Shown here: piece after piece, positions 17,657-52,400 of the stretch
Numbering within the stretch: the first letter of the stretch is position 1
Layout: each line of letters begins with the position of its first letter
Origin: an uncultured Verrucomicrobiae bacterium
Lineage (GTDB): Bacteria; Verrucomicrobiota; Verrucomicrobiia; Limisphaerales; Palsa-1400
Reading direction: 5' to 3'
DNA: 64,000 nt
Assembly: GCA_963764165.1 (NCBI GenBank)
Contig: CAVXRD010000002.1
Location: forward strand, 32,001 to 96,000
Position numbers and translations under genes: made by a program
Notes under the pieces: model-generated
The model's input: the letters and a program-made list of their open reading frames with translations, nothing else
Told to the model about the DNA's origin: nothing
The model's database searches: none

Positions 17657-17670
17657 TGGTCTGACATTTT

Positions 17671-28769: not shown

Positions 28770-28801
28770 CTCCGGCGAAATACCGTAGCATCCTTGGCCA
28801 G

Positions 28802-32100: not shown

Positions 32101-34317
32101 GCTGCCAAGACGGGCGTCAATTTCGGTGGCGGCGAGATCGGCGGGCTGCACCGCCTTTAGCGCTTCGACGTTTGGTTGATAGCGGGCGTCGGTCAGTGAT
32201 GCGGCTTCCGCCGTCTCCAATTTCGCCCGCACATTGCCCGAAAGATAATCGTCTTCGGTTTCCCAGCGGTCAGTTTGAGGATTGAAGAAAATCATTCCGT
32301 GCAAGTCCGGCAGAAATTCGGATGATGGCCGATGAAGGAGCCCGCTCAGATAATCGAGATCGACCATCCCTCGCTCATTAAGTGTCAAGAGCAGCCCGGT
32401 TTTGGCGTCCGGCGCAGTTTGAGGAGCTTGGACACGCTGAATCGTGCGCTCGCGAAAAATTGCCGCTTTGGAAGCCGTCTTGGTGTCTTCGTCGTAATGC
32501 TCCAAGGAAAGCAAGAGAGGTAAATCCGGGTCGCCACGAAAAGCAGAAGTATTCGCTCGCGCCGAAATCGGCCCGTAACGACTGACAAATGAATCGTAGG
32601 CTTGATTGAGTTGGGCGCGGGCGGCGATTACTGCCGCTTCATCGTGGCCTTCCAATTGTGAACCCAAGCACCTTCGGACTGCATCGCGCACTTGGATGAG
32701 CTTCCGAATACGCTGTTTGGTGTTGCTGCTTAAATCTCCAAGCGCCCGCACAGTGTCCTCCTCCCGCACGCAGACTTCCCCTTGAACAATGCAATAGGCA
32801 TTGGGTTTGATTTCGTCCGGGGCGGGAAACTTCTGGTTTGACTCAACTGTCAGGGGATTAGATTGCCGCGCGGTGAAAACGTTGGCTGGCAGACGCAAAA
32901 TGGTGGTCCGAAGTTGTTCGGCTAGGTCTCGTCCATTATCCTCAAGGGTGGGTTCGCCGCGTTGATACATTCTGCCTGCCAGCCGCATTTCACCCAGCAT
33001 CATTTCCGGCCGCGCAACGAAATACTCATTTACGGCAATGGATTCTTCCAAGGAATTTGTGATGTTCGCGACCTCCCGCCATGCTGCGTCTTGCGGAATT
33101 TCGCCGCGGAATCGTTTGCGCAACATGATAATGTCTGTAGTAACCTCGGTATTGGCATTCTGTTTGAAAGCGGTGTTGGGGAGCCGGATGGCTCCGAGCA
33201 GGTCGGCCTGTTGCGCGACATATTCGCGCAATGCGCCGTCGAGCTTGTCCATCGTTCCCTTGGAAGTCACAAATAAAATCAGTCCCCCTGGACGCACTTT
33301 TTCGAGGGAATTGGCGAAGAAATAATCGTGAATGACGAAATTCCATTTCTTGAAGCGAGGGTCAAAGGGCTTGTAATCGCCGAAGGGGATATTGGAAATC
33401 GCGACATCGTAGAAATTATCGGCGAGTTTGCTTTCTTCAAAGGGCTGATGCCGAACGTCGGCATCTGGATAAAGTGCTTTCGCCAATCGCGCAGTGACCA
33501 AATCAATCTCGATGCCCGTGATTTGAGAGCGGCCCGCCATTGCCGTGGGCATCAGTCCGATGAAATGGCCTAGACCACATGCTGGCTCAAGGATTTTGCC
33601 ATTTTCAAATCCGAAGCGAGCCAAAGTGTCGTACATGGCCCGAATGACAACCGGCGAAGTATAATGAGCATTGAGGGTGCTGGCGCGGGCCGATTCCAAT
33701 TCGTCCTCCGTCAACAACTTTTCTAACTGCTGGCGTTCCTTGGCCCATTCTTCGTTGCGAGGATCGAAAGGCTGAGGCAGTCCGCCCCAACCCACATAGC
33801 GGACAAGAATTCGTTTTTCGTCGGTGGCGGCTGAACGGTTATCCTTCTCGATTTGTTTGAGAAGGTCGATGGCCGCAAGATTATGGCGGCATTTCTGGCG
33901 AAGGGAACCAACGCCTAGTTTGTCGGCCTCAGTAATGCGATAATTGTTCTGATTGCGAGGGGCTTCTTCGTCCGGGATGGGAACTAATTTTCCGTTTCTT
34001 CCGGTGGGAGCAGGATGTACCGCTCCCTCACTATTTCCCACGCTGAGTCGTGGGCTTGCTGCGGTGTCCATCTTTGTTGAATCAACCGGCGACGAATCTG
34101 GTCGATTTCCGCTTCCGTCTGGTCCTCCGCTTGCTTCAAGGCTTGGTAAAGGGTTCCCTGGCTTTCCATTTCCGTCACCATTTTGGGACGGAACTCGCGC
34201 CAATGTTTCTCGGCCATTCGGCCGTACTGGGTTAATAGTGGTGGAGAGGTTTGCGTCATAACCAAATAAATTCAGTTGGTTGTCGTCATTGCGTGCTTTG
34301 GCGCGTTTTACTGCCAT
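29143..34317 (-). CDS. DarB-like N6-adenine methyltransferase / SNF2 helicase fusion
   Basis: YVGWGGL, LEPACGLGHF, NIPFG, HVVGAGKT, VDEAH, TGTPIANS, GTNVQ, EQREGRILRQGN. Confidence 0.93.
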   Translation of the reverse strand: MAVKRAKARNDDNQLNLFGYDANLSTTINPVRPNGRETLARVPSQNGDGNGKPGNPLPSLEASGGPDGSGNRPDSSPVDSTKMDTAASPRLSVGNSEGAVHPAPTGRNGKLVPIPDEEAPRNQNNYRITEADKLGVGSLRQKCRHNLAAIDLLKQIEKDNRSAATDEKRILVRYVGWGGLPQPFDPRNEEWAKERQQLEKLLTEDELESARASTLNAHYTSPVVIRAMYDTLARFGFENGKILEPACGLGHFIGLMPTAMAGRSQITGIEIDLVTARLAKALYPDADVRHQPFEESKLADNFYDVAISNIPFGDYKPFDPRFKKWNFVIHDYFFANSLEKVRPGGLILFVTSKGTMDKLDGALREYVAQQADLLGAIRLPNTAFKQNANTEVTTDIIMLRKRFRGEIPQDAAWREVANITNSLEESIAVNEYFVARPEMMLGEMRLAGRMYQRGEPTLEDNGRDLAEQLRTTILRLPANVFTARQSNPLTVESNQKFPAPDEIKPNAYCIVQGEVCVREEDTVRALGDLSSNTKQRIRKLIQVRDAVRRCLGSQLEGHDEAAVIAARAQLNQAYDSFVSRYGPISARANTSAFRGDPDLPLLLSLEHYDEDTKTASKAAIFRERTIQRVQAPQTAPDAKTGLLLTLNERGMVDLDYLSGLLHRPSSEFLPDLHGMIFFNPQTDRWETEDDYLSGNVRAKLETAEAASLTDARYQPNVEALKAVQPADLAATEIDARLGSTWIPTDDIRKFTEELLGERGIQVSFAPTIGSWVVKGGWNAKTSVANTAEWGTDRRSALDLLEDALNLRTPTIYDHDREQNRDILNPSATEAARDKQEKIKERFKEWIWQDDERRERLARKYNDEFNCIRLRTFSGEHLTLPGASPSVVLRPHQKASVWRILQTPNTLLAHVVGAGKTYTMVAAAMEFRRLGLACKPMFAVPNHMLGQFSSELLTLYPGANILVASKDDFEKQKRKTLMSRIATGNWDAVIVTHSCFEKIPVAKATSEEFFKSQLRELALAIEEQRQQENSRIVKELERAKKKLETKLKELSAGEKKDDVLTFEELGVDRLFVDEAHYFKNLFYVSKMTRISGLPATASQRAFDMLLKVQHIQRINGGGGVIFATGTPIANSVAEMYTMQRYLQTPALKAQKIDHFDSWAATFGEPVTAMELSPDGSGYRLHTRFARFINVPELMQQFRQVADIQTQKMLKLPIPEIKTGKAIVLSAPCSPQLKAIVQDLVERAEALRTGRVDPREDNMLLVTTDGRKAALDLRLYDPKLPDVPESKVNKAAAQIERVWRQTADKKCSQLVFCDLSTPTNGKGFSVYENLRDKLVRAGVPVSEIAFIQDYDADNAKSALFHDVRAGKVRILFGSTQKMGAGTNVQERLIAEHHLDAPWRPADVEQREGRILRQGNTNPEIEIYRYVTEESFDAYMWQTLETKAKFIAQVMTGESDLRRIEDVDGAALTYAEVKAIASGNPMVIEKAGVDAEIARLTRLHSQHVQSQYKMKYQLRYLTDEIPRLEKSLTDVRADIAARADSRGDKFAITIEGETIRDRGIAGELMLRCAEKMRGSNSQREIGSFVGFKILVADSYMRGPEIILRGTSSHTISLANTAQGMTRSLEYSVQNLDEAAAKLEENIKSTQKRMAGLQEQTQQPFEYADKLAGLMKRQQDITEALDLTKNQASNQLDTTTAESSESVNTQAENLTQRSGASIDRNAEVGVAV
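33984..34259 (-). CDS. TnpV-like protein nested in another frame of the helicase 5' end
   Basis: LTQYGRMAEKHWREFRPKMVTEMESQGTL...AWEIVRERYILLP resembles the TnpV pattern. Confidence 0.72.
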   Translation of the reverse strand: MTQTSPPLLTQYGRMAEKHWREFRPKMVTEMESQGTLYQALKQAEDQTEAEIDQIRRRLIQQRWTPQQAHDSAWEIVRERYILLPPEETEN

Positions 34318-34858: not shown

Positions 34859-35440
34859 TCACCAGTTCGAGTTATCGTTGGTTGAAGGAACAGCGGTGGG
34901 AACGGGCTGTTCGCGGAGTTGTTTTTCCAAGAGTTCGATGCGCCGGGTATTATCTTCATTTTGCTGTTTTACCTGGGCGCTTTGGATTGCCGTTTGTTGA
35001 GTTGCCGCGACAACGCCGGAAAGTTTTCCCAGCGTTTGATCGAGGTGTTGCTGCTCTGAAATAACGGTTTGGGTGAGGCTCCGCTGTCGGTTGATCTCAG
35101 AAATAATCTCCGCGTTGACTGGCGGGTTACGATGCGCGGAATCGACAATGCCGACCGCTGGCCCCATTGCCACGCCAACCGGCGCGTTTGGATGGAGGTT
35201 CCACTTGGCGGTCGTCTCAACTCGATAAACTGTGTGGCGCTCGTGCATGACGAGCGGATTATCCGGCTCGACATAACGGCCAATGGTGTAGGCTTTGAGA
35301 TTTTCACCATAGCGAACGGACTCGGCTTCATCCGATGGGATAACCGTGCCCGGAACGTCATGATTCATGTGAACGACAACAGGTTTTTTGCTGGCGCAAC
35401 CGGCCAGCACCAATAGAGAGATTACGATGGAGTATTTCAT
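34859..35440 (-). CDS. T4SS-associated lipoprotein
   Basis: Lipobox LAGC; C-terminal coiled coil; overlaps the virB10 stop. Confidence 0.75.
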   Translation of the reverse strand: MKYSIVISLLVLAGCASKKPVVVHMNHDVPGTVIPSDEAESVRYGENLKAYTIGRYVEPDNPLVMHERHTVYRVETTAKWNLHPNAPVGVAMGPAVGIVDSAHRNPPVNAEIISEINRQRSLTQTVISEQQHLDQTLGKLSGVVAATQQTAIQSAQVKQQNEDNTRRIELLEKQLREQPVPTAVPSTNDNSNW

Positions 35441-36495
35441 GGCAAGACAGGTGTGAAATGGGGCGGACGTGGATATGGCATAAATTGGGGAGGAGGATTT
35501 TCAACGAAATCATTCGTTTCTGGCGGCTGAAATCGGGTGCCGCCAATCATGGCATCGCTTTGGTCTATTGTTTGGGTCACGTAGAGATAGAACTGCTTTC
35601 CCGCCGGAACCCGGACATAAAATCCGTCGCGTTCAATGGAATTGAGAATTTGCTGAGAATAAGTGCCAAGCACGCTCTCGGCTCCGGCGAGAGAACCATT
35701 TTGTACGGTTTCGGTCGCAATTGGCCCGAGAACCGTATTTTGGCGTTCAGTTAAAGCTCCGGCGGCTCCGCTCAAAAATGCGGAGGCAAAGAGTTTGATT
35801 TCGGCCAAACTGTCCGACTTGATGATGCGCCCGCGTAATCCGGCGCTTCCGTCCGTGATGCCCCAACCGCTGCCATTGGGGTCTTGCTCACGATCCAGGG
35901 CAACGCCATGAAGGCTCAATTCCTCGCCATCGTGCCAAACCAATGTCCAGTGATTGCCGCTGGCGATGCGCTCGCGCGTGGTGTCCGTTTGCGCTGTCCC
36001 ATGCACTTCCGTACCAGCCGGAATAACCAAGCGGCCCGCGTGATAAACGTCTTCGGTGACAAGGCCGATAATGGGAGTCTTCATTTTGGCCGAATCCACC
36101 GTCACAACCAATTCGCATGGAATCAATCGGCCATAGGGCGCGTAGTGCTTGCTCAATGGTTTGACTTTCGCCTCCGATGCAGGCGGTTCGACATAAAGAC
36201 TAATCGGCAGACGATCTGGTTTGACGGCGTTCGTGACCGGTGCAGTGGCCGCAATTGGCGAATGTTCGGAATGAAATTGAGGTGGAGGGAAATGCAAAGG
36301 AGCAGAATTCCCCTCCACCGTCTGCACAGTCTGAGACTGCGCAGAATTTTTCGATGGCGGATCGGGCGGTGGTTGGTCGGCCTTGGCCTTCTTAAATCCC
36401 GAGACCAAGGCCAGAATGACGATACCCGCCCCGCAAAAGCCGGTGATTTTGCCGGTAGGACTTTTTATGAAATTGATGGCATCGCGAGCATTCAT
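35437..36495 (-). CDS. virB10: VirB10/TrbI-like protein
   Basis: N-terminal TM, Pro-rich linker, GRLIPCELV...IPAGTEVHG...DGSAGLRG...VRVPAGKQFYLYV. Confidence 0.85.
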   Translation of the reverse strand: MNARDAINFIKSPTGKITGFCGAGIVILALVSGFKKAKADQPPPDPPSKNSAQSQTVQTVEGNSAPLHFPPPQFHSEHSPIAATAPVTNAVKPDRLPISLYVEPPASEAKVKPLSKHYAPYGRLIPCELVVTVDSAKMKTPIIGLVTEDVYHAGRLVIPAGTEVHGTAQTDTTRERIASGNHWTLVWHDGEELSLHGVALDREQDPNGSGWGITDGSAGLRGRIIKSDSLAEIKLFASAFLSGAAGALTERQNTVLGPIATETVQNGSLAGAESVLGTYSQQILNSIERDGFYVRVPAGKQFYLYVTQTIDQSDAMIGGTRFQPPETNDFVENPPPQFMPYPRPPHFTPVLP

Positions 36496-37388
36496 GGCTT
36501 GTTCGTATTGACGTTGGGAACAATTATCGGGGGAGTTGATTGGGCCACATGCAGGGCGGGATTGGCTTGGAGCACAACAATGAAATCGTTCTTGAGCGAC
36601 AGATCATTGCGCCCTCCGTCAGGAGTGCCGGTGACTGCGAAATAAGCGGGAGTTTCGCCCTTGGGCGGAATCATCCCGCTCGCATCACTAATGGAAGAAA
36701 AATAAGTGCGCTCCCCTGCACGCAATGAAAATCCGTCTGGCGCATAAGCCAAAGGTTGATCGGTTTTGTTCCGCAGCCGGACATGAAAGATCAACGTATC
36801 CTCGGCATCGAATCGGAACACTTCATCCAACTGCACTTCATAATCATGATAATCCATGATGCGGGGCGCTTTTTCGTAGGAGTGGTATTCCACGTCCAGG
36901 ATGGATTCCGGATGGTATGCTTTGAGCAATGGATAGCCTTTGGCTTTGTCAAGCAAGGCAAGCAAACGATGAGGCGAGACGCTGGGTTGCTCCATGTGAT
37001 CGACCGGCTCGGGCGGCAAATTGAAAATGACGGAATAGAGAGGCGAAGAATTTTCAACCAATTCCACCACATAGGTTTTGCCGTTCCACCGAATATTCAG
37101 ATTGGTCGCGGCTTTTTTCGCTAGGGCCCGGATGGACAGGAAGGCCGTGCCGGGGGAATGGGCAATTTGAAATTCCGCGGGCGTTTTGTTGTCCGCTGTA
37201 ACTTGGGCGGCATCAATGGCCGAGATTGGACCCGGAAAACTGATGGTCGTCACGCGGTCCTGCGAAACGGAGATGGTGAACACTGTCCGTTCATCCAAGG
37301 TGAATTCCTTGATCGCATCGCTGGCGGCAAGAACGCTGCCCGCCACGATTGCGCCAAGCCAAATGAGAATTTTAGTGCTGCATTTCAT
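36492..37388 (-). CDS. VirB9/TraK(F)-like core-complex protein
   Basis: Signal peptide, 'VTTISFP' N-domain, position between the VirB8-like and VirB10-like genes. Confidence 0.6.
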   Translation of the reverse strand: MKCSTKILIWLGAIVAGSVLAASDAIKEFTLDERTVFTISVSQDRVTTISFPGPISAIDAAQVTADNKTPAEFQIAHSPGTAFLSIRALAKKAATNLNIRWNGKTYVVELVENSSPLYSVIFNLPPEPVDHMEQPSVSPHRLLALLDKAKGYPLLKAYHPESILDVEYHSYEKAPRIMDYHDYEVQLDEVFRFDAEDTLIFHVRLRNKTDQPLAYAPDGFSLRAGERTYFSSISDASGMIPPKGETPAYFAVTGTPDGGRNDLSLKNDFIVVLQANPALHVAQSTPPIIVPNVNTNKP

Positions 37389-38031
37389 ATTTGTAATCGA
37401 GGACGGCAGTCGGAAACCGCCCGTTTAAGGCCATGTTGGGATTGCGCTGCAATTTGAGCGACAGTTTGAATGGGACGGCTTCGGAGAATGCTTTGCCGTC
37501 GAATATGCCGTTTCGTACGAGCTGCCCAAACACTTGGGTGAGGACAAAATCTTCGCGGGTTTGGAGAATGTCAATATGGTCCACTTCCGCTTTTTGGTGG
37601 AGATCTTTGGCCTTGAATTCCGGTTCTTCGGAGTAGCATTCGGTGGTGGCCTTTTCCCAAGCGCGCTTCAAGAACATCTGTTTGAGCAATTCGGGATGAT
37701 CGAAGCCTTTGGGATTGCGTTGCAAGAAGGCGATGGTTGCCAATGAACTTTGCTGCGCGTGCAACTGTTTGGCTTCGGGAAACGAAAGCAAGGGGGCCTG
37801 ATAATAAGTGCCGCTTGGGTCGATGATGACGACGCGCTCGCGCTCCTTGAAACTCTTGACCAGATAAATCCGCTCCACCGCTGCGCCGACGATGACCAGT
37901 ATCGCGACCCCAAACCAAAACCAAGTAAGGCGGTCGCGCTGCACAAAAATGCGGGTCGGGTCGGAATGCTTTTGCGCAGTTGGAACGTGGCCGTTATGCG
38001 GGACGGTTTCGCGAAGCGTAGGCGTGTTCAT
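37372..38031 (-). CDS. VirB8/TraE-like bitopic protein
   Basis: Single TM followed by VVIIDP and an NTF2-sized periplasmic domain ending NGRFPTAVLDY. Confidence 0.6.
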   Translation of the reverse strand: MNTPTLRETVPHNGHVPTAQKHSDPTRIFVQRDRLTWFWFGVAILVIVGAAVERIYLVKSFKERERVVIIDPSGTYYQAPLLSFPEAKQLHAQQSSLATIAFLQRNPKGFDHPELLKQMFLKRAWEKATTECYSEEPEFKAKDLHQKAEVDHIDILQTREDFVLTQVFGQLVRNGIFDGKAFSEAVPFKLSLKLQRNPNMALNGRFPTAVLDYKYEMQH

Positions 38032-38035
38032 AAAT

Positions 38036-38248
38036 TCAATGATTGGTTTTGGAAAGCGGGTTGGTGGTTTGGCCATCGGGAAAAACTGGCGTCGAAGTAT
38101 CCAGTTTGAACGTCTTTTGATAATTGCTCATGGCGTTGGGCAATTCATTTTCAACGCCGGAAGTGGCATGACGGCGGACGCCGATGATCGCGACTAGCCC
38201 GATGACGACGACGACAATGCCGCCGAAATAAATCAGTTTTCGTTTCAT
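38036..38248 (-). CDS. Small membrane protein in tra operon
   Basis: 70 aa, N-terminal TM, overlaps the trbJ stop. Confidence 0.6.
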   Translation of the reverse strand: MKRKLIYFGGIVVVVIGLVAIIGVRRHATSGVENELPNAMSNYQKTFKLDTSTPVFPDGQTTNPLSKTNH

Positions 38249-39057
38249 GGCGAATTGGTCTCCGTGAAGTTGGCGGCTTCGGTGCTTAGTTTGAAAAGGG
38301 AGCCGTAATTGGAAATGCTTTCCGTAAATTCGGCCTGCTGCTCCTCGCTTTCCGCTTTGATCTGCTTGTCCCGGTCGTTCTGATTTTCAACGTGCTGCAC
38401 TAAGGCGAGACCGACGGCTTGATCAGCCTCCTTGTCGGTCGCCGCCAGTGCGCCGTTTAGACCAGTCAAAACGCCCTGCAACTTCTGCACTTCCGCATCG
38501 GTCGTGGCCGACTGCAATTGCTGGGTGGTGGTGGCGATCTGCGCTTTTAAAGTGGCTCGACGCTGCTGCACGTCGGCATATACGTTCGTATAATTTTGCG
38601 TGGCTCCATCAATGGCCGCGTTGGGTCGATAATAATTGGTGTCCCGCGTGACCTGCGTCCCGGAAGGAGTCGTGAAATTTTGCCCCACGTTGTGATACAA
38701 CCCGTTGCCGTTGTTGTTCAAAGCCTCGTTCCCATCGGCGGAGACTTGAATGGTCACCATCGACTGGCCGACGGTGGGATGATTCAAATCGGCCACCAAG
38801 CCAGGCACGCCTGTGACTGAGACCACGGCGGCGGGGTTTCCGAAAGCGGCGTTATACTGCTGCAATTGCTGCAACTGCGAAGTCAGCGTGTTGATCTGCT
38901 GGACTTGGTTGTTGATCATCTCGACGTATTTGGCGACGTTCTGAGCCTGGTCGATGATCTGCTGGGTGTTCATCGTGGGATCGTAAACCACCCACTGCGC
39001 TTGCGCCTGAATTGCCGAAAGCAGGATTAGAAATGGGGTTAGCTTTTTCATGTTCAT
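38245..39057 (-). CDS. trbJ: TrbJ/VirB5-like (DUF4141-type) protein
   Basis: Signal peptide AQA-QWVVYDP and Gln-rich helices. Confidence 0.8.
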   Translation of the reverse strand: MNMKKLTPFLILLSAIQAQAQWVVYDPTMNTQQIIDQAQNVAKYVEMINNQVQQINTLTSQLQQLQQYNAAFGNPAAVVSVTGVPGLVADLNHPTVGQSMVTIQVSADGNEALNNNGNGLYHNVGQNFTTPSGTQVTRDTNYYRPNAAIDGATQNYTNVYADVQQRRATLKAQIATTTQQLQSATTDAEVQKLQGVLTGLNGALAATDKEADQAVGLALVQHVENQNDRDKQIKAESEEQQAEFTESISNYGSLFKLSTEAANFTETNSP

Positions 39058-39470
39058 TCCTCAATACGGAGATATTTAGTGGTCGGATTGAGCACCGCGC
39101 CATCAATCGTTTGCTCGGGAACCGGAATGGCATAAAGGCGAACACTGGGATCGACCGGTGGGGTTTGCTGCTGTTTGACTTGCAGCCAGTATTGTTGCTT
39201 CACCGCATCACTGCGGCCTTTTTCGTAGCCAGTCTGAAACGATTTGCTTTGCTCCTTGCGGGCCAGATATTGGCCGCCTTCGCTTAAGAGCACCCCGCCG
39301 GCCGCCCCTGCCACCGCGCCGACTGGACTGCCGCCGGATAATTCATATCCGGCATAGGCGCCTCCAGCTCCCAGCGCGGTGTCGGTGATGGGACGACTCG
39401 CGGCGCAACCCGACAAAAGCAGGACGGCGGCGGGAATGGAAACGAGAATCAGAATTTCGGAGTTTTTCAT
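39054..39470 (-). CDS. Glycine-zipper lipoprotein (TraV/VirB7-like position)
   Basis: Lipobox LSGC; GAGGAYAG...GAVAGAAGG; ATG 39470 overlaps the virB4 stop. Confidence 0.7.
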   Translation of the reverse strand: MKNSEILILVSIPAAVLLLSGCAASRPITDTALGAGGAYAGYELSGGSPVGAVAGAAGGVLLSEGGQYLARKEQSKSFQTGYEKGRSDAVKQQYWLQVKQQQTPPVDPSVRLYAIPVPEQTIDGAVLNPTTKYLRIEE

Positions 39471-42190
39471 ACGTTCGTGGTCACTTCGGTGGAATGTTCG
39501 ATGATGCCTTCGATGACATTGGCGCTCCCCCGCAACTGGCGGGCGCGCTTCTCGAAGTGCTCCCCGCTGGAACTGCTGCAATAAAGCATCTCCGGCGAAG
39601 AAACATTCTGGACGGTCCCGCAAATCGGGCGATGGGCGTCCAAGTGCAAATAGGTAAAGGCGCTGAACTTTTGGCCGACCTGATGGTCGGGCAGCGGATA
39701 ATTCATGATCGTGTGCTGGGTCACATCGGGCAGCGCGATGTCATGGGCCATATCTTCCAAGTCGGCCCGGTCGCTCTGGCGCATCAGGAAAAATTGACGG
39801 CTATTGCCAAAGACGGCGGAGCGAATACGCGACTGTTTGAATCGGCTGTATTGCTGGACGATGGAAATATTCCAGCAATTGAATTTGCGAAGCTGCGCGT
39901 AACTTTCCCGCACAATTTCCTCGCCGCCCGGAATATCGAGGAAACGAGCCACTTCCTCATAGACGTTGCGTTTCCGTAACGCACGCGGAAGCGTGATGAT
40001 ATGCTTCCGCGCGTCGTTGGTGATGAGGAAACCTGCTGCGGCTTTCAGCTCCTTGGCGGAATCAGGCACGTAACCCAACTCGAAGTGAGCAATTTTTCCG
40101 GTAATCGAAAGATTGCTGACTCCGTCAAACAAACACCCGTAATTGCCTTCGCGGCACCAGGGCAAAAGCAGCGTGGCGATTTCGATGATTTGGTCGCGTT
40201 CCGCGCCCGAAGCATCGAGATACATCAATTCCTGCAACATGCGATGGGTCGGATATTCGGCAGGTTGAAAATAGGCGAAGGCCAAATTGCGCACGTCGCG
40301 GGCCGTGTTCGGCTCTTTGGAGAATTTTAATATTTCCGCTTCGTCAAACCGATGGAGATAAGCCTGCGCTTCGTCAGAATGAGAACTCTGCCAGTCCCGA
40401 AAATCAGCAAATGCTTCCAAGGCAGTCGCGCCGGGTGGCAGTTTTTCATGCCGGTAATAAGACAATGCGCAGGCGTGGCGGGCGATGGCCGGCATTTGAT
40501 CGGCATGAGTGCGAGACCAATCCGTGAATACATCTTCGTAGAGGAGATTCAGGTATTTTGAAATCTGCGCCTGGCGCAACATCTGTTTGTCCTCATGCTG
40601 GCTGGTGCCAACCATGCGCGATACCAGCGCGGTAGCCGAGGCCAGATGATCGGGAGTCAGGGGCAATCGCTTGGTGTCGAGGTAATTGATCGTCAAGTCA
40701 CCGTCCGGCTGAATGATGATCGGTTTCGCCCCCGGCTCGACCGTTTGCGTGTAGATGCCATAGGACAAACCTTCTTCGATAATGACGGTGTAAGCGAAAT
40801 ACCCCTCTGTTTGACTCAAAAGGTCGCAGACATTCACGGACTTGCCGGTGCCGCTCATGCCCAGCAGCACCGCGTGTTGCGGGGAACTGTTTCCATTCGT
40901 TCCCGCAAAAGTTTTTATGCCGACAAGATTGTGGTCTGAACCTTCGTAAAGAGCTTCGGCGGATTCCAAATGTCCGGTGAAGGTCGCGCTGAAAGGAAGC
41001 ATGTCGGCCAGATAGCGATTCTCCGCGTAGAGCTTGCGCGCGTCGTACTTGCCCCAAGTCCAGCCGGGCCACGTCTGGAAGAACAATCGCCGCGAGCTGC
41101 TTGGCAATGCGCTCTCGTGATATTGTGCGCCATTCATCGAATTGATGGCGTTCTTGATCGCGCTGGTTTTGGCGCATAACCCTTCCTTGGTTTGATCCCA
41201 GGCGCGGACCACAAACAAAACTTTGAACGGCAGCGTGTGCCCCTGCATCAAGGCCGCGATTTTCTTCTGCTTCTTCTCCATGACAGTGACGAGCGAGAGC
41301 TTTTTCTCACTGGCGTAATCGCCCGCGATGCGGTCGTGTTGACGCTCCTCTTTGTCGATTTCCTCACGCACAGGCAGCGGTTCCACATTGACCGTCACGG
41401 TGAAATCTAAGAGCCGAAGGCCCGTCAACCGGTGAATCAAACCGGGATGCGTCATCTTGGGCCAACGGGTGAGGACGATGAGCGAGTGGTAGTGGCCGTC
41501 CATCCAAAATCCAAAATCGGATTGCCCGTTTCCCTCGCTGTGCCAGCAATTCTCCTGAATGGAAAGGTCCGCGTCGAACGTTTCGAGCGGGTCGTAATCG
41601 AACCGAAGGCCCAGCGAGGGATTAAGAAAAGTGGTGTAGTGCCGGTAATGCTCGGCGGCGGTCATGGGCAAAATTCTCGCGCCTTGGCCGGAGAAGATGC
41701 CGCAGAGAGTTTCATGAACCTGGGTGAATTCCGAATCCAATTGATCGAGCAACGTTTGGTAATATTCCGACAACCCTTTTTCCGAGAGGGTCCCCTTCGG
41801 GGAACTGTCAATGGCGCGGGAGATATAAAGGACCAGGCGTTGCCGCCGCAGTTTGCGTTCCGTCATCAAGTTCCAATACCGGGTGAACCGCTCATTGCGA
41901 GTGCGTTGCGTCCAGACGTTGTTCATCTTCTCGGTCTCGGTCTGATACCGAGACAGTTCATTGCGGTAGTCGGAATCGCAGTAGTACTGCACTTGCAGCC
42001 GTTGCCGGTCATGCAACGACGCCAGTAGAAGCGAGATTTGATCTTGGAATTCGTTCAGTTCCGAAATCTGCGCATTGTGCAAATCCGGCGGCTGCACGAT
42101 GAACCCTTTGGAGACATAACCTCCTTGCCGCAGGCCGTTGAACACAATCAGGTCGCGGATAAAGAAACCGTTGGGCGCATTTTCAAACAT
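39467..42190 (-). CDS. virB4: VirB4-like T4SS ATPase
   Basis: Walker A GMSGTGKS, Walker B VYEE, LRKFN...IVQQ; about 900 aa. Confidence 0.88.
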   Translation of the reverse strand: MFENAPNGFFIRDLIVFNGLRQGGYVSKGFIVQPPDLHNAQISELNEFQDQISLLLASLHDRQRLQVQYYCDSDYRNELSRYQTETEKMNNVWTQRTRNERFTRYWNLMTERKLRRQRLVLYISRAIDSSPKGTLSEKGLSEYYQTLLDQLDSEFTQVHETLCGIFSGQGARILPMTAAEHYRHYTTFLNPSLGLRFDYDPLETFDADLSIQENCWHSEGNGQSDFGFWMDGHYHSLIVLTRWPKMTHPGLIHRLTGLRLLDFTVTVNVEPLPVREEIDKEERQHDRIAGDYASEKKLSLVTVMEKKQKKIAALMQGHTLPFKVLFVVRAWDQTKEGLCAKTSAIKNAINSMNGAQYHESALPSSSRRLFFQTWPGWTWGKYDARKLYAENRYLADMLPFSATFTGHLESAEALYEGSDHNLVGIKTFAGTNGNSSPQHAVLLGMSGTGKSVNVCDLLSQTEGYFAYTVIIEEGLSYGIYTQTVEPGAKPIIIQPDGDLTINYLDTKRLPLTPDHLASATALVSRMVGTSQHEDKQMLRQAQISKYLNLLYEDVFTDWSRTHADQMPAIARHACALSYYRHEKLPPGATALEAFADFRDWQSSHSDEAQAYLHRFDEAEILKFSKEPNTARDVRNLAFAYFQPAEYPTHRMLQELMYLDASGAERDQIIEIATLLLPWCREGNYGCLFDGVSNLSITGKIAHFELGYVPDSAKELKAAAGFLITNDARKHIITLPRALRKRNVYEEVARFLDIPGGEEIVRESYAQLRKFNCWNISIVQQYSRFKQSRIRSAVFGNSRQFFLMRQSDRADLEDMAHDIALPDVTQHTIMNYPLPDHQVGQKFSAFTYLHLDAHRPICGTVQNVSSPEMLYCSSSSGEHFEKRARQLRGSANVIEGIIEHSTEVTTNV

Positions 42191-42527
42191 GATGAGATTC
42201 CTTGAGAGGATGAACGGGCGAGACGGTTTCCGGTGTGAAACCACTCCCGCTCATCCAATAGTCGAAGCAGTCCACGTCGTACCCGGGCGGCTTTCCCTGG
42301 CGGAAGCCAAAGACGTAACCGAACGTAAGCGCGAGAGGAATGGCCGCGATGGATGAAGCCAGCAGAATGTTCAGCCGCAGGGCGCTGAATAAGAGCAGCA
42401 GAATAATCACCGAAATGAATGAGCCTCCCGCCACATACCAAAACAGATTGCCATCCAGCCCCCACGTCTTCCCTTCGGAATCGTCGGCGCTGTTGGTTTC
42501 CGTGAATCTGAGTTCCTGCGATTTCAT
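42183..42527 (-). CDS. VirB3-like membrane protein
   Basis: Two TMs followed by GKPPGY; lies between the pilin and virB4. Confidence 0.65.
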   Translation of the reverse strand: MKSQELRFTETNSADDSEGKTWGLDGNLFWYVAGGSFISVIILLLLFSALRLNILLASSIAAIPLALTFGYVFGFRQGKPPGYDVDCFDYWMSGSGFTPETVSPVHPLKESHHV

Positions 42528-42817
42528 TGGAACGTGCCCACATCGACGGTGGAGTTTCCGTTGCCGAAAGCTGTGAACAGAGCCTTCACGATGACCGGCG
42601 CACCCGCGATGATGAGGCCGCCGATGATGGAGAGTTTGCCGGCGTCGGTGTCCCCGCGCCGGATGGCGAATCCCCCGCCAATGACGCAGAGCGTGCCGAA
42701 CAGGAATCCAATGAGCATGACGATGCCCAAGGCCGATGACGCGCCCGAGGACAAGCTGCCTGTAGAGGCAGCTTGCGCCAGGAGCGGTGCGAATCTTGCG
42801 ATAGCTAATGTTTTCAT
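42524..42817 (-). CDS. VirB2/TrbC-like pilin
   Basis: Short leader and two hydrophobic helices separated by RRGDTDAGK; first gene of the tra operon. Confidence 0.72.
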   Translation of the reverse strand: MKTLAIARFAPLLAQAASTGSLSSGASSALGIVMLIGFLFGTLCVIGGGFAIRRGDTDAGKLSIIGGLIIAGAPVIVKALFTAFGNGNSTVDVGTFQ

Positions 42818-42853
42818 AACGTCGCTCATCCTAGCGAAAGTTTGCAGGGGGTC

Positions 42854-42872
42854 TGTTCAGACTTCTGAACAA
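42854..42872. promoter_or_regulatory. ICE operator copy 2 (TGTTCAG-ACTT-CTGAACAA)
   Basis: In the divergent pilin/AAA intergenic region; leftward -10 TAGGAT at 42833-42828. Confidence 0.75.
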
Positions 42873-42903
42873 CATTCAACTTTTTTTCGGCTTCAATGGA
42901 GGC

Positions 42904-43821
42904 ATGAATAATATTCTCGAATCGAAGCCGGATTCCCTCGGAAAACTCCAATCTCTTGAAGCCCATCTGCGGGAGCGGATTCGCGGGCAAGACCACGTTT
43001 TGCCGCGAATCATTTCTGTCCTCCAACGCGGTGAGTTAGGGCTGACCAAATCGGAGCGGCCCAAGGGAAGTTTTCTTTTCCTTGGGCCTACAGGCGTGGG
43101 AAAAACAGAAGTAACACTGGCGTTTACAAGTTTCCTCCTGAGCAGTCAGCACGTTTTTCGTTTTGACATGTCCGAGTATCAAACACAGGACCGTTTGCCG
43201 CTCCTGCTGGGAAATTCGCAGAGTGAACCGGGAATGCTTTCGGCGGCTTATTCCCGCTTCCAAGTTGGAACATTATTGTTCGATGAAATCGAGAAGGCCC
43301 ACCCCCGTGTGCTTGACCTTGCCCTGCAAATGCTCGATGCGGCCCGCATCACCATCGCCACAGGTGAAACGCTTGACTTGAGCGGTTACTACATCGTCTT
43401 CACGTCAAATATAGGCTCTGCCGATTTGCTCAATCTTCAACACTCCAGCGCCGCGACGATGGAGCGGCATGTGTTGACGCGAGCGCAACAATCGTTGCGC
43501 CCAGAAATCTACGCTCGCATCACTGAAAAATTGGTTTTCCACCGGCTCAGTTACGATCACCAATTGGAAATTGCGCGGCTCATGTTGGAAAAGGAGTTGA
43601 AGTTTTTGCGGCAGAAGGGCTGTTGTCTGGAAGCGGATGCGTCCGTTCTTCCGTTTCTGGTGCGGCAGGGATTCCATCCAAAGCTCGGCGCTCGCCCCAT
43701 GCGTGATGCTGTTGAAAAATATGTCGGCGATGCTGTCGCCACCGATTTACTAACCGATGGGAGCGGCTCTGGCCGTATCAGCGTGGACCAATCCGCTCGA
43801 TGTCTCGTGGTTCGGCAATGA
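42904..43821 (+). CDS. Stand-alone ClpA/B D2-type AAA+ ATPase
   Basis: IRGQDH, RPKGSFLFLGPTGVGKTE, FDMSEYQ, LLFDEIEKAHP, FTSN, GARPMR. No N-domain or D1 module. Confidence 0.9.
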   Translation: MNNILESKPDSLGKLQSLEAHLRERIRGQDHVLPRIISVLQRGELGLTKSERPKGSFLFLGPTGVGKTEVTLAFTSFLLSSQHVFRFDMSEYQTQDRLPLLLGNSQSEPGMLSAAYSRFQVGTLLFDEIEKAHPRVLDLALQMLDAARITIATGETLDLSGYYIVFTSNIGSADLLNLQHSSAATMERHVLTRAQQSLRPEIYARITEKLVFHRLSYDHQLEIARLMLEKELKFLRQKGCCLEADASVLPFLVRQGFHPKLGARPMRDAVEKYVGDAVATDLLTDGSGSGRISVDQSARCLVVRQ

Positions 43822-44011: not shown

Positions 44012-44413
44012 CTACGCCAGCAACAGGTACATGTGCTTTTCACCAGCATCGGTCTCAGGTGAATAGCCCGCTTTGTCACCTTGTTCTTTGCACCACCGGA
44101 ATATTGCGTTCCTCAGTTTGGTGTCGGCGGGCAATTCCATCACCAATTTCTCGGTGTGCTGACTGCCATTTGGCCGAGCCTTAATGTCCACGGCAAGAAT
44201 TTTAACAGCCCCAGCGGCGTATAATTCCTTCACAATTTCGAGAGATTGTTTTGTCCCTTTGAATGGGCCGAGGGTTCGTTGTCGTGCCGCCTGGCTCTCA
44301 TTGAGCCAGCGTTCCGCTTCAGCTTTATGGGACGAACGCAATAGCCTTTCGATAAGATGTAGATGATCGCTGCTGCCGGGCTGTACGCCACTCAAAATGG
44401 ATTCGGAATTCAT
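44012..44413 (-). CDS. Hypothetical protein
   Basis: Globular-looking ORF (EAERWL...VKELYAAGAVKILAV...ELPAD); preceded by an ICE operator. Start set at MNSES. Confidence 0.7.
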   Translation of the reverse strand: MNSESILSGVQPGSSDHLHLIERLLRSSHKAEAERWLNESQAARQRTLGPFKGTKQSLEIVKELYAAGAVKILAVDIKARPNGSQHTEKLVMELPADTKLRNAIFRWCKEQGDKAGYSPETDAGEKHMYLLLA

Positions 44414-44468
44414 TATGCCTTCAAAATTTGCAAATTGCGTGATCACACTATAGCCCAAGAATAATTAC

Positions 44469-44490
44469 GTTGTTCAGCTACCTGAACAAC
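44469..44490. promoter_or_regulatory. ICE operator copy 3 (GTTGTTCAG-CTAC-CTGAACAAC)
   Basis: 21 bp identical to copy 1; leftward TATAGT/TAGTGT -10 candidates at 44452-44445. Confidence 0.75.
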
Positions 44491-46283: not shown

Positions 46284-46493
46284 TTATTGATTTTGGACAT
46301 CGACAATGCGGCTTGGATCAAATGGTATATCCTCGCTCGTCCCGACTTTCACAATTTCTTTTGCCCACGCGATGAATACATCACGAATTCTGGTGCCGTC
46401 CTCCAAGACGACAATGACGCGGTTAACGCCATATTTGTATTCGGGAAACGTGGCTACTTTGTCCTGTAATTCTCTTGGCAATTCGCGGTTCAT
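46284..46493 (-). CDS. Putative cognate immunity protein
   Basis: 69 aa, cytoplasmic; its ATG overlaps the Rhs stop (TAATG). Confidence 0.7.
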   Translation of the reverse strand: MNRELPRELQDKVATFPEYKYGVNRVIVVLEDGTRIRDVFIAWAKEIVKVGTSEDIPFDPSRIVDVQNQ

Positions 46494-49400
46494 TAAAATC
46501 CTTTGGGGAAAATGACTTCTTGAGCGCCCCCAACCCCTCCGAACTCTCCTCCTGGGACGATGCCTCTTTGTATGGGCGTTCCAGGTGGTGGCCTAAGGAT
46601 TCGGAAATATTGAGGTGGCTTTCCGGGAAGATCCCCGAAATTCTTGAGTGCGGCGGGGTCTTGTCCGATGGCGTTGAATGCAGCTTCTGGAAACGCATAA
46701 GTTCCCGGTTGAGCCCCACTCAAAGAACCGGAGCCAAATTTTAGATTAACGGGGCCTGCACCAACGCGCACGAAGGTCTCACCCGCTTGGGTTACATCGG
46801 GTGTTTGAACGCTCGCGCCATTTGCGAACGGAAACTCCATCTGGGTGGCGTTAGCTCCTCCGGTGCCTGTGGTGGCTGTGGCCGTTGGTGTAGGAGCAAC
46901 TCCTGAAGGCTTGGAACTCGTGTTTAGGGAATTGCCAAAATCGAATTCTAACTGCGTTGCAGCAGACGCGTCGCCATCCCTAAGGGCCCCGAGGGCAGAC
47001 AAAAGCGCGTTTCCGGCAGGCGTAGGAACATATTTGAAACTTAACGGGTCCATTCCTGCTTCCTGCATTCCTTGCACACCAGCAGAAAGAAAGAGTGAGC
47101 CGAGAGAGGCATCTTGGGCGGCGGTAAAATCGCCTGTTGCAGCGGCTTCACCAAAGCCTTTTCCCATGCCGTAAAGGCCAAGACTCCCAATATTTGCCTC
47201 CGCTTCTAAAGTTCCCATGAGAATATCACTAGATGTCGGCCCGGCACTTGGGTTGTTATAGATATTCTGATATAACTGGCTGAACCCCTGATAGTCACCC
47301 CCTGCGCCACCTAACGCCCAAGCAGTCTGCGCCGTCATGTCGTAACCTATCTCCCCTGCTTGAGCTAAGCCATTGACAGTTCGGGCACCTAAATTGTAGC
47401 TGGTATTCGCGACTCCACCCCAAAATACCCCACTGGAAAGGGCGTCCGCATCCAGTGCCCCCTCCTTATAAATATTCCTGGAGACGCGTCCATCTGCGTC
47501 GAAATAAATCGCAGGATTTCCACCGAACGCCGTGTTCAAGGCCTCGTCAGAACCGTGCCCGAGGGGGTCAGCGCATAGGAATGCCCGGCGTGTGAAATCA
47601 TAGGGACGAAAACCCAATTGAGCGAAGCCTGCGGTATTGATCGCGCGACTACGCCAAGCCAAACTGGCAAAGGCTGGAGATGCTAATGAAAGGCGCGGGG
47701 GACTGTAACCGTCTGCGGGCCCGTAAAGGCTCAGTCTCGCCGAGTTCCACGACAAAACGCCATTGGTTATACCGGCTAATACATTTCCAAATCCATCCGA
47801 AATGATGCCCGACGTCAAGTTTACCGACGCGGTTCCGCTAGTGATTTCCTCGATCCCACCCACTCCTTGCATCCCGCCGTAGTGGCCACTTGTATCGGGC
47901 CCATACGTAAGGATATCCTGTCGGAAGTCACTGCCCTGACTAAGACTAAGAATAACTGGCTGGAATTGAATTTGAGGATCATATTGGTACCCAATCGTCA
48001 ACGGCTCTGGTCCACTCGTCAGAGCAATGTTATTGCTTACAGTTGTTTCAACCGTTTGGACCTGTCGCCCGAGAGCATCAAAAACTACTGCCAAATTAAA
48101 ACCATTATTATTTGTGTCACGCTCGTTAACCTTTACCAGTCTATTGAAAGCATCCCAAGTTAAGGTTTGTACTTTAATAAGCTGGCCACTTCCATTCTTC
48201 CATACAAGATTGGTCACATTACCTGAGCCATCGTACTGGCTACTTACTTGGTCTGCCGCGTTAGAACCGACGGTAAACGCACTAACCCGATTTGTAGTAA
48301 ATAGACCGCCCGGATGATCGGCATACACTGCAAGCGTATTCGTCCCTCTTTGCAGACCGAGTGCGGCACTCCACTGGCTAGCGCCTCGTCCATCGTAACG
48401 CAGATCTAGGGGCTGTCCGTTGAGATACCCACGCAGCGTCGCTGCACCGTTAACATGCCCAGTCGCCACCCGTTCAATAATGGTATTTGTCCCAGTTATA
48501 ATGCGTGAGAAGGCATCAACTCCGCCCATCCAGGAATTTGAGCTCGCAGACAACTCCGAGGCTGATGTCAAGACGCCTAAACCAGCGGCGACACCATTAT
48601 CAAATGTATATTTGTTCGTAAGAGAACTGGCACCAGCGAGATTAAAGCTCTCTTGCGTCAGCTTCCTCGTCAATGGAGCGTAGGAAAAGTTGCGTGTGTC
48701 AGTGAAATCACCCCGCGTTGCCACATAATTTGATGGAGAGCCATCATCCAACCACTTCCATGTTTCCGTCATTTCCGTCGTACCGAAGACCTTTGTGGTC
48801 ATCTGGAGTGGGCGGCCTATTGAATCTCTCGAATCAACGCTTACTGATCGGAAAGCGTTAGTCCGACCCGTAAGCAATCCGTTGTCCGCATATGCGTAGG
48901 TGGCATCGTTCATCGCGGTCATTAAGTTGTCTGCGCGGTATTGAAAACTCATGCCGGATGAAACTTGAGTCCTTCTTCCTGCACTGTCCCATTGCTGACT
49001 AATCGTGGCTGGCACGCCGCCCACCGTCAGGGTATCACTGCTCAGTTGGGAATAGGCATCGTACGATCGTTGAATGGACGTGGCTACACCCGCATTTGTG
49101 TTTACGTAAGCTTGAGTGATCGACGACACCAAACCGCGTGGTTCGTATTGCCAAACAATGGACAACTGCTGCTCAGGAAGCGAGCCGGCGGTAGTCGTAT
49201 TTGTAATACGCAGGAAATCATCATACAAATTCGTTCTAGTCACCCCTCTTTGATCAGTGACTGACTGAACCAAACCCGGCCACGCACTGCTATAGTACGT
49301 GTAAACATTTGTTCTCGTACCCTGCGCCCCTGTCTGGTCCCACTCGTTCAACATCTGACCAGCCGAGGAATAGGTGGCGGACCAAGTAAGATTTCCGGGC

Positions 49401-52400
49401 ATCGCGCGGTTGGTAAGATCGTTTAATTGATCGTAACGATAAGTCGTAGTAGCATAATCGCGTGTCGTTTCCGTTTCGATCCGGTTTAACCCATCAAAAG
49501 TCCACGATGAGAATGACCATAAGATTAAACCGCTTGATGCTTTGTCATGTTCGATTTCATTACCAGAGAGATCATATCTATGGAGATCGTAATCCAGTTT
49601 CCCGCCACCAGGAGAAGATGCTGTGAGAAGCTTACGCCCATCATTGTCAAGGTAGGTGGTTGTGCTAATAGCACCACCGCCAGTTCCTTCCGTGACAGTG
49701 ACACTGTGATGATCAGCAGAATAGACGTTTGTGGTAACATGTAATGGTGTTAAGCTGCCGGGAGCAAACACCTGCACCGAGACTTGACGGCCCAGAGCAT
49801 CCTTGGTCGTGATCGTTTTCTCGCCCAAGGTGTTGGTAAAGGTCAAGACACGCCCGCTCCCGTCATAAAAGAAGGTAACCGATTGCTGCGATATATTAGT
49901 CGTATAGGTAGGGGGGCCAGCCGGGTTTAGCCCGGAAACAATACTATCAACAGTAACTATGGCCGGACCGGACTCGATTTTCACCCGATCCAAACCGTCA
50001 AACGAGCTCACAAATATGTTTCCAAGCGCGTCTGTTTCTTGAATTGAGTTGCCTCGCCTGTCCAATTGAACTGAATTCGTTCGCAATGGGACTCCCAAGG
50101 CGGAATAAATTACTTTGGTCGTAAGCCGATTAAAATCATCGTAGGTCGTCTGGACGTACGCGCCGTTGCATTGAAATTCGCGGTAAATCCGACCGTCTAG
50201 GTAATAGCGCCAAGCATTCGTTGAGCCATCGGCGTTGTGTCTGTATTCAGGTTGTCCCGCAGCAGTGTACTCAGTTTCAGTAATGCCTCCCAAAGCATTC
50301 GTATGGTAGCGAAGAAGTCCGCCTGGCTCATACCCAAAAGTTTCGGATGACAGTAACGTGATTCCATCCACGTCGAAAAATTGCCGTCTCGTTAAGCGAC
50401 ATAGCGAATCCCAAGTGTTGCTGGTGATTGCACCACGAGGATCAACAGTCCGGGTAAGATTGCCAAGCGTATCGTATGAATTGAACGTCTGAGCATAAAG
50501 ATTGTATCCGGCAGGCGCCTGAACCCCCGATCCGTCCTGCTTCGCCTCGCAACGCCAGTGGATTTCTGTTGTTGGTCGACCGGCCCCATCATAATCATGC
50601 CAGATATAATCTTCCGGGTTGTAGCGCGGACCATCCACCCAAGTAAGTTCCCCATTTTCATTGTAATAATTGAAATTCCATGAGAGCAGATTGCCGCCTT
50701 CGTCGAAGTTTTCCTGTTCAGTCCGACGGCCCAGATCGTCGTAAGCAAATTCCGTCGTGGCACCCAAAGCGTCGCTTTCATCTACAAGTTGGCCACGCTC
50801 GTTGTAAAGGAACGTGTTGGTAATGGAAGGATCGCTAGTGCCCGAGTAAGCGACGCTTTGTGTTAGGAATCCCTGGCCATTGTAGGTGAAATCATTGGTT
50901 GCGGCATCTGGCGAACTGTAAGCACGAACAGTTCGCACCAATAGGCCACATGAAAAATTCGTCTGGGTTATTGAGCCGAGGATGACGACGTTTGTCGCGT
51001 TTGCGTATAGCTGCAAATTTGTAACGATAGGGTTAAGACTGGCGTAACGTATCGTTTGCGCGGGCAGAAAGGGAAATTGAGTGTCGTAAACATAAAAAGT
51101 GCTATTTCCCACCGGATCCGTGCGCTGCAACGGTAAACTGTTTGTGTTGTACACTGCCGTATTCGTTGCAGCTTGCGTAAGAATTCCATCTCCCGATATG
51201 TCACCCGTTATAACCGTATTTGTAATATTTCCATTCAAATCGTATTTGAATTGTGTCCAAATTCCACGCTTGTCCTTGCGTTGAGAAACGCTCCGTGGGT
51301 ACCCAGGCGCGGTCGCGTTGTCTGCATACCAAGATTGTTGGATAGTCTGCCCGAACGGGTCGGTCACCTGCGTAATAAGGCTGTTGGTGTAATCGTAACG
51401 GTTGGTTCCATTATTTCCGTCAACGACCGTCGTGTATCCACTTATGGCGTTGGTGGCTGAATTGGTGAGATTGAAGTTGTTAGAATAGTAGAATGTGGCT
51501 GTTCGTATCGGATTCAGATCTATGCCTGCCGTAGACCATTGGTTGGTGACGCGCCGCTGACTATCATAGGTGTTTTGCAACACTCTCCCATTGGGGTTGT
51601 CCTCTTCTGCGATGAGATGCGTCGAGAATAGTTGTTGCGTCACTGCGGAGCCATTTGTCACAGATTGGGTCCCGTGGAGATACTGGTAAGAACGGGTCGT
51701 GCCATCAGGCAATGTGACGCCTATCAGATCGCCAAATTTGTCATATGCGTAAACCAATCGCCTTCCGTCGCCGCAATAGGCTTCGATGATGTGTCCGTAC
51801 ACGTCATAATAAAAGCCCAGAAAGTTTCCGTTACTACACTGGATTCTTCGCACCTGGCCAAAATCCGGTTGGGAAGGATCGGAACCGTAAGTGAATGTGT
51901 AGAAATTCCCGCAATTATTTGTCCAAGCCAGCATGTATGGACGGGTCTGATTGAGAACCCCGTTGTTGAATGTAATGTACTGAAACACTCGGATGCTGCC
52001 GTCCGCCCCATATAAGGCGAAATTCGTTGTTCCGCTGGTGACCGTTTGGACAAGGCGGTCGCGTAACCGATTCACAAGCCCACCAACACCGGAGGAAGTA
52101 TTGTTTACAAGCTGGGGATTAGCAGCGGTGGTCGGCATCCAAAGATTACTGTTTGTAGGTGACTGAACATAACTCAGAACAGCTCCATCCATATCTGCCG
52201 CGTAAATATTTAGATTGCTCTGCGCGACACTCAAATATGGTGCGATGCTAAACTTCCAGCCTGATCCGAATTGGTTATCTGCGAGATTGAGACTTGAATA
52301 GTTTCTTCCCAATGAAAGCGGAATCGGGCCAGCCAGTTTCAAATCAACCTCGCTGACATAAAACTCGCCAGTGATATTGTTGACGGGATCGGCAACCTGG

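Follow-up and report, generated by a model that had tools for sequence, protein, structure and literature searches.

The stretch analysed here (the window, 64,000 nucleotides) comes from an uncultured Verrucomicrobiae bacterium (assembly GCA_963764165.1, contig CAVXRD010000002.1, positions 32,001 to 96,000) and carries part of what its gene content identifies as a 55-kb integrative and conjugative element (ICE) at tRNA-Lys. The hallmarks of such an element are all present as genes or sites: an integrase, attachment (att) repeats, a relaxase, a coupling protein and mating-pair genes. The left att site duplicates 43 bp from the 5' part of tRNA-Lys(CTT) (17669-17711, plus strand), and the other end lies beyond the window, at C2:99936-104815, with the relaxase, the integrase and tRNA-Lys. 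The relaxase, of MobF type, and the integrase beside tRNA-Lys were named by sequence features and annotated plasmid homologues. The gene in question (42904-43821, plus strand) encodes a 305-amino-acid, stand-alone AAA+ ATPase derived from the second ATPase module (D2) of ClpB, with a shortened pore loop that lacks an aromatic residue. It diverges from a run of virB2, virB3, virB4, a lipoprotein gene, virB5, virB8, virB9, virB10 and a second lipoprotein gene; virB6, virD4 and a TraL-like gene are found elsewhere in the window, apart from this run.

The protein matches the Pfam models AAA_2 (E 1e-27) and ClpB_D2-small (E 3e-12). Of the NCBIfam ClpB model it covers only positions 554-844, scoring 205 bits where the cut-off is 1232. 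The N-domain, the first ATPase module and the middle domain are all missing, and with them the architecture of the ClpB disaggregase. The sequence-only reading had described a lone 305-residue ClpB-D2 module with intact Walker motifs and GARPMR, and domain matches and alignment confirm this: Walker A is GPTGVGKT, Walker B is LLFDE, and TSN and GARPMR follow, which together with the arginine finger make up the D2 signature of Clp-clade AAA+ proteins (Walker A, Walker B, sensor-1, arginine finger, sensor-2). The same reading saw no GYVG loop, and alignment with E. coli ClpB agrees, the corresponding region being LLGNSQSEPGML.

The nearest solved relatives are the second nucleotide-binding domains of ClpB and Hsp104 (E 3e-64), which share with the ATPase Walker A/B, RxDMSE, TSN, RPE..R, GAR, the small C-terminal domain and the lack of an IGF-type ClpP loop. 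Unlike them, the ATPase is a single module, its GYVG loop has 6 residues in place of 11 and no aromatic, the secondary E/H loop is lost, and the gene belongs to mobile elements and is tied to tra genes. The host's own ClpB is 36.5% identical to it; the closest homologue, at 88%, is labelled Limisphaerales. Annotation pipelines wrongly name the gene ClpA or ClpB. The protein has no membrane segment (highest 19-residue hydropathy 1.09), no DNA-binding domain among its domain matches and no match to the VirB11/TrbB models PF00437, TIGR02788 and TIGR02782, and a profile comparison with VirB4 gives no homology (probability 7.8).

Across an alignment of 141 family members, 42 with known tra context and 99 without, no row departs from D127 and E128 (Walker B), N169, R205 or G262, and at least 90% of rows keep K67 and R264. 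R205, the arginine finger, aligns with the arginine of ClpB FINR. The pore loop has 6 residues in 86 of the 110 family rows that could be parsed, versus 11 in 65 of 70 Clp modules, and contains an aromatic in 4/110 rows versus 66/70 modules. The E and H positions of the ClpB secondary loop are not conserved either, and the IGF-type ClpP loop, a trait of ClpA, ClpC and ClpX, occurs in none of the 141 rows versus 30 of 79 Clp modules. Passages of PMC6546751 ascribe the substrate grip of ClpB to these loops, through Y653/V654 and E639/H641. Given intact catalytic residues and the loss of both D2 pore loops, ATP hydrolysis without threading of polypeptide is likely for the family, as is argued for torsins in passages of PMC4999309. 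A remodeller that works by threading, one of the roles proposed from the sequence, is unlikely for the same reason, the degeneration of both loops being family-wide.

The family is an old clade of proteins of about 300 residues under purifying selection. A protein search returned at least 120 homologues among the matches listed (285-338 residues, identity at least 68%), a profile search of cluster representatives added many more members of about 300 residues, and the length is steady near 303. In a tree of 70 rows, from which five near-duplicate copies were left out, the 38 tra-linked copies all fall into a single clade that excludes the 32 Clp D2 modules (SH-aLRT 84), with a mean within-clade distance of 1.96 versus 1.07 for the Clp modules; a FastTree of 170 rows recovers the same clade (support 0.83). 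Ratios of nonsynonymous to synonymous substitution (dN/dS) are 0.03-0.21 in nine of ten pairs, the tenth being saturated, and are rough, many synonymous distances lying near saturation; those of VirB4 are comparable (0.02-0.16). A recent clpB fragment under relaxed selection, which the sequence-only reading had named as the outcome that would overturn it, does not fit a deep clade under purifying selection.

The ATPase and the VirB4 of this system occur together almost one to one. Within the host order, a close ATPase copy is present in 32/301 genomes and VirB4 in 40/301, 30 of which are common to both sets, and of the 30 loci returned, of which the window is one, 28 have the gene head-to-head with virB2. 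Nine of the ten genomes with VirB4 only were fetched: one has a distant copy, in six the contig ends before the expected place, and two hold degraded elements. In a sample of the phylum, the VirB4 family is found in 37/401 genomes. A stand-alone protein reaching at least 310 bits with the family profile is present in 33 of these 37 and in none of the other 364, a zero that is limited to scores exceeding the ClpB band (about 296 bits), below which weaker copies would stay hidden. Three of the remaining four VirB4 genomes have a weaker stand-alone copy, two of which were checked and adjoin a distant virD4-like gene, and the VirB4 of the fourth lies on a 1.6-kb contig; the ATPase is thus in 36/37 genomes carrying the VirB4 family. 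Of the metagenome VirB4 loci, 47 extend 600 bp or more beyond virB2 on its upstream side; all 47 carry the ATPase, and they are close kin of the window (72-81%). The gene also occurs in a metagenome-assembled genome of Akkermansia muciniphila. No member of the VirB4 family was found in 201 genomes of Planctomycetota, the other phylum sampled. The proposed linkage of homologues to tra genes is therefore borne out in genomes and metagenomes alike.

Plasmids rarely carry the system. A BLAST search with VirB4 hit 2 of 72,556 plasmids, both complete and from Opitutaceae, and both encode the ATPase; MOB-suite types one as mobilizable and the other as non-mobilizable. Searches with the ATPase protein itself were dominated by its relatives: the best 40 of 2414 PLSDB matches are ClpB-type only, the copy on CP007054.1 being recovered by profile, and a scan of genome contigs was swamped by ClpB and ClpC, with family members at 2 of 80 loci. 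Both plasmids also encode type IV pilus ATPases, and the NZ_CP109797.1 record appears to contain its replicon twice, with many frameshifts.

Where the gene sits varies, yet it stays with the transfer genes. Among 55 elements, whose position classes were counted by hand, 25 have it head-to-head with virB2, virB3 or virB4, nine have it as the last gene after virB10 and the lipoprotein gene, six directly before and eight directly after virD4, two before virB8, one co-directionally before virB2, and four at a remote site. In 51/55 the nearest tra gene is no more than about 620 bp away. Apart from the four remote copies, the ATPase shifts among six positions that are always at tra promoters or operons, and it is a core transfer gene of this system. 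In mating-pair formation systems of type T (MPF-T), according to passages of PMC3548315, virB11 sits after virB10 or before virB2.

VirB11 itself is absent. Models PF00437, TIGR02788, TIGR02782 and PF01464 find no match inside the ICE, the portion beyond the window included, which upholds the earlier observation that no VirB11 or VirB1 is visible among the tra genes. VirB11/TrbB models score above cut-off in none of five genomes, no PilT/GspE/VirB11-like gene is present at any of 80 metagenome VirB4 loci, and a Walker A census of seven compact elements, with a pattern that misses some variants, returned only VirB4, VirD4, the relaxase and this ATPase. The absence holds, but by itself it is not rare, since VirB11 is seldom found outside MPF-T according to parts of PMC4027160.

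The ATPase has been inherited with the mating-pair genes. Patristic distances of ATPase and VirB4, compared across 36 elements, have a Spearman coefficient of 0.92, which no other of the 15 pairs reaches (VirB4-VirB8 comes to 0.90). The ATPase correlates at 0.80 with VirB8, 0.74 with VirB10, 0.64 with VirB9 and 0.49 with VirB6; with VirD4 the value is 0.75 in 21 elements and 0.55 in 18, when three distant ones are dropped, and with the relaxase 0.49 (15 elements). The partial correlation with VirD4 given VirB4 is 0.18-0.27. Paired ATPase and VirB4 sequences number 92 (effective number 38), too few for covariation analysis. With 19 elements, approximately unbiased (AU) tests of the ATPase alignment accept the trees of VirB4 (p 0.22) and VirB10 (p 0.29) and reject that of VirD4 (p 0.012). 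Three elements, G459, G621 and G570, in which the ATPase gene is co-transcribed with virD4, are grouped with the window by the VirD4 tree (0.89), and with G444 and G453 by the ATPase and VirB4 trees (0.99 and 1.00).

Taken together, these observations make it somewhat probable that the ATPase is a third mating-pair ATPase that acts with VirB4 in a conjugation system of Verrucomicrobiota lacking VirB11. A dedicated conjugation ATPase in a divergent Verrucomicrobia mating-pair system had been proposed from the window alone, and tra linkage and an old, selected clade support it. A VirB11-like job fits best because the protein is soluble, catalytically complete, non-threading, inherited with VirB4 and found in the places of virB11; it is likely a non-homologous stand-in for VirB11. 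In P-type systems, according to passages of PMC9259494 and PMC12624023, VirB11 forms hexamers constitutively and attaches beneath the central ring of VirB4, and its proposed role is to stabilise and activate this ring so that pilin can be extracted. The ATPase, with its catalytic residues and the aligned arginine kept, would hydrolyse ATP and hexamerise on its own, and its ring may bind VirB4 by docking on the cytoplasmic face. The docked ring would stabilise or switch on the central VirB4 hexamer, leading to pilin extraction, pilus assembly and transfer.

This comparison has clear boundaries. Like VirB11, TrbB, TrwD and DotB of P-type and I-type type IV secretion systems (T4SS), the ATPase is a soluble third ATPase beside VirB4 and VirD4, encoded after virB10 or ahead of virB2, and it is constant and inherited with the mating-pair genes. 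Unlike VirB11, which belongs to the PilT/GspE family, it is of the Clp clade and has no sequence relation; its gene is usually divergent from virB2, and its docking is only predicted. The system as a whole resembles MPF-T (VirB/Trb) with a MOB-F relaxase in a gene order that reads as virB2-3-4-(5-6)-8-9-10, in TrbI, TrbL, a TrbJ-like protein and VirD4, and in the MobF-type relaxase and the tyrosine integrase at a tRNA. It differs in having neither VirB11 nor VirB1, in a VirB4 whose Walker B reads EE, and in the near absence of that VirB4 from plasmids (2/72,556). This EE in place of DE is seen in 63 of the 67 scorable sequences among 92 of the VirB4 family, and the window VirB4 scores far under every cut-off of the VirB4 models.

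Several observations weigh against a VirB4-associated third ATPase. In 14 of the 55 elements the gene is joined to virD4, and in 25 it neighbours virB2-4 anyway. Tested with the VirB4 alignment, the tree of the ATPase is rejected (p 0.005). Kinship of the elements and similar rates of two slow cytoplasmic ATPases may inflate the correlations, and because the VirB10 tree is also accepted, the trees place the ATPase in the mating-pair module and not with VirB4 specifically. One element (G310:C19) has virB3-virB10 and virD4 with no ATPase nearby, although there is another copy in the genome, and a truncated element in G051 is also without one. Nor is a replacement for VirB11 required in principle, because F-type, Gram-positive and ComB systems function without it, as stated in sections of PMC12857230.

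A further point of this kind comes from one genus in which three copies lie between recA and dnaN, at least two of them placed surely, near a gene for a lone Clp D1 module. The order at these loci (L181:6918-9529, L210:4334-7230 and L208:8306-10889) is a loop-less D2 gene, an orphan of about 185 residues and the stand-alone Clp D1. At two of them, part of a virB2-B6 cluster and genes for type IV pili lie 13-20 kb off, and the third has no VirB4 on its contig. The arrangement looks like a split Clp in reversed order, a domesticated derivative, and this branch has another or an added use. With the G324 sequence as query, the lone D1 gene was found in 3 of 69 genome stretches, at none of 80 metagenome loci and not in the host.

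The virD4-joined copies invite a different placement, on the DNA-processing side, as a VirD4 partner that would prepare the relaxase or relaxosome for transfer by remodelling or unfolding it. Six of the 14 copies in virD4 operons are arranged as ATPase-virD4-relaxase with overlapping stop and start codons, the ancestry is that of an unfoldase, and a VirD4 correlation of 0.55-0.75 is compatible with such a role. However, the VirD4 tree is rejected, little of that correlation is left once VirB4 is accounted for, and the loops described in passages of PMC6546751 as gripping the ClpB substrate are lost. We regard this explanation as unlikely.

Equally, the ATPase could be a non-threading, torsin-like chaperone of mating-pair assembly, recycling or pilus retraction that works on membrane subunits (VirB8 or VirB10 tails, or pilin) and is not stacked under VirB4. 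Torsins, in passages of PMC4999309, provide the precedent of a single Clp-related AAA+ module without the pore-loop motif. They lack an arginine finger of their own and need LAP1 or LULL1, unlike the bacterial, cytoplasmic ATPase, in which R205 is invariant in all 141 rows. Acceptance of the VirB10 tree, the VirB8 correlation of 0.80 and the two copies that head a virB8-10 unit would suit a chaperone, but the VirB4 correlation is the highest, the protein has no membrane segment, and nothing points to a specific membrane client. This role, too, is unlikely.

Useful cargo, for stress tolerance or as an anti-phage or anti-defence function, could in principle hitch-hike on tra promoters. Among defence models, PDC-M37B and DolB, both of short ClpB-like ATPases encoded in accessory DNA, match the protein weakly (E 1e-18 to 1e-23), and Dodola DolB contains a ClpB domain, as parts of PMC11514479 report; the three chromosomal copies beside a lone D1 module could be read in the same sense. 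These scores are far below those to ClpB, there is no DolA partner, and the linkage is to conjugation genes. The near one-to-one occurrence with the VirB4 family, the congruent tree, the lack of a constant defence-type partner and the persistence of the ATPase through six rearrangements in tra units, while cargo turns over, make a cargo function very unlikely.

A signalling NTPase or co-regulator at an operator shared with the pilin gene was a further proposal, and it turns on the intergenic region. The VirB2/TrbC-like pilin (42524-42829, minus strand) matches PF04956 weakly (E 0.009, under the cut-off, which 2 of 7 scanned homologues exceed). The 86-bp gap described earlier holds when counted from the pilin's second ATG; the first gives 74 bp. 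Within it lies the palindrome TGTTCAG-N4-CTGAACA (42854-42871), which has 4 matches in the window versus 0.05 expected; a sigma-70 scan of this region found no promoter. The palindrome common to pilin and ATPase is real, but it is not private to them: the 7-Mb genome has five perfect copies within the ICE and one elsewhere. Those in the ICE precede orf200-virB6 (20533-20550), virB2/ATPase, orf148 (44471-44488, before the 44012-44458 gene), the traL-virD4 operon (63507-63524) and the relaxase, and the sixth, on another contig, lies beside a paralogue of the ICE's helix-turn-helix (HTH) gene of XRE type. The palindrome is likely the operator of a tra regulon, with the product of that HTH gene (20536-20880, minus strand) as its predicted binder. 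In relatives, palindromes differ in sequence and occur mostly once per fetched locus.

The ATPase is a member of this regulon by its operator, yet no regulatory role follows. With five copies of the palindrome spread over all tra promoters, co-regulation by the ATPase is unsupported. The head-to-head arrangement in 25/55 elements speaks for such a role, but the protein has no DNA-binding domain, the palindrome varies among relatives and also stands beside the HTH paralogue elsewhere, and 30 of the 55 copies are away from this promoter, so that a signalling or co-regulatory function is highly improbable. A recent, decaying clpB fragment, to which the match to only the C-terminal third of ClpB and two broken copies (L108 and L109) might point, is refuted by the depth of the separate clade, its distance from the host ClpB, its low dN/dS and its constant length.

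With the third mating-pair ATPase as the preferred reading, a bolder claim can be put forward tentatively, and we give it somewhat less than even weight. Conjugation in Verrucomicrobiota, Akkermansia included, may rely on a T4SS class that has gone unrecognised, where a domesticated, pore-loop-less ClpB ring has taken the place of VirB11 under a divergent VirB4 with an EE Walker B and powers pilus assembly; this would be the first quality-control AAA+ module turned into a secretion ATPase of conjugation. The system itself is a T4SS, and it is the ATPase component that appears to be undescribed. Our literature search found no description of a Clp-type ATPase in conjugation or of these Verrucomicrobia elements, although supplements and subscription papers could hold a mention; by term search, 'Clp' and 'ClpB' are absent from the main texts of PMC4027160, PMC12857230, PMC5512222 and PMC6907783.

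How VirB11 and VirB4 cooperate is called unknown in portions of two recent reviews (PMC12857230 and PMC12624023). If the claim is true, an unrelated, non-threading Clp ring in the VirB11 slot would show that the key property of a third ATPase is a hexameric scaffold or switch and not its fold, and it would offer a swap test. The conjugation system is present in about 9% of sampled Verrucomicrobiota genomes (37/401), and plasmid typing missed it on both complete plasmids examined. Verrucomicrobiota have few genetic tools, so native transfer systems matter.

Among the mating-pair genes of the window, only TrbI and TrbL pass Pfam cut-offs, and the gene order fits MPF-T. Downstream of the pilin gene, all on the minus strand, come a VirB3-like small membrane protein (42183-42527), assigned by position and hydrophobic profile with no family match; the divergent VirB4 ATPase (39467-42244, 907 residues from the database start); a conserved small lipoprotein-like tra gene (39054-39470); a TrbJ/VirB5-like gene with weak TrbJ matches (38245-39057); a VirB8/TrbF-like gene placed by position, with no family match (37372-38076); a VirB9/TrbG-like gene below cut-off (36492-37388); VirB10/TrbI (35437-36495; PF03743, E 3e-19); and the conserved lipoprotein 3' of virB10 (34859-35440). 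The VirD4-type coupling protein (60189-61685) and a TraL/ParA-like P-loop protein (62044-62907) are also encoded on the minus strand.

VirB6/TrbL (18532-19731, minus strand) is displaced from the virB operon. It lies at the left end of the ICE (18532-20278), behind a gene of 200 residues of unknown function and its own operator copy, as it does in G205:C96, and the virB operons of several close metagenome loci lack it as well. A methyltransferase-SNF2 helicase fusion (29143-34317, minus strand) closes the virB operon here and in many relatives; it resembles the anti-restriction proteins of mobile elements. Convergent on the ATPase gene is a conserved hypothetical gene (44012-44458, minus strand) that is common in the host order only and in relatives is often head-to-head with an HTH gene; it belongs to no family and has a weak atlas likeness to YfbO.

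The cargo of the ICE includes, at 46493-57448, a 3651-residue RHS/DUF6531/Calx-beta protein with small secreted-looking neighbours, at a GC content of about 49%, and, at 21567-27321 and 27807-29146, hybrid histidine kinases, response regulators, a SWIB-domain protein and a small basic histone-like open reading frame. Mobile remnants elsewhere in the host (G000:C1:1076127-1102541 and C4:780131-781190) contain paralogues of TraL and of the HTH protein, the latter with its perfect operator copy, near tRNA-Pro, and next to tRNA-Ser a virD4 with a frameshift. Far from the window, at G000:C2:1559019-1561230, is a dense tRNA array in which one call has a TTA anticodon.

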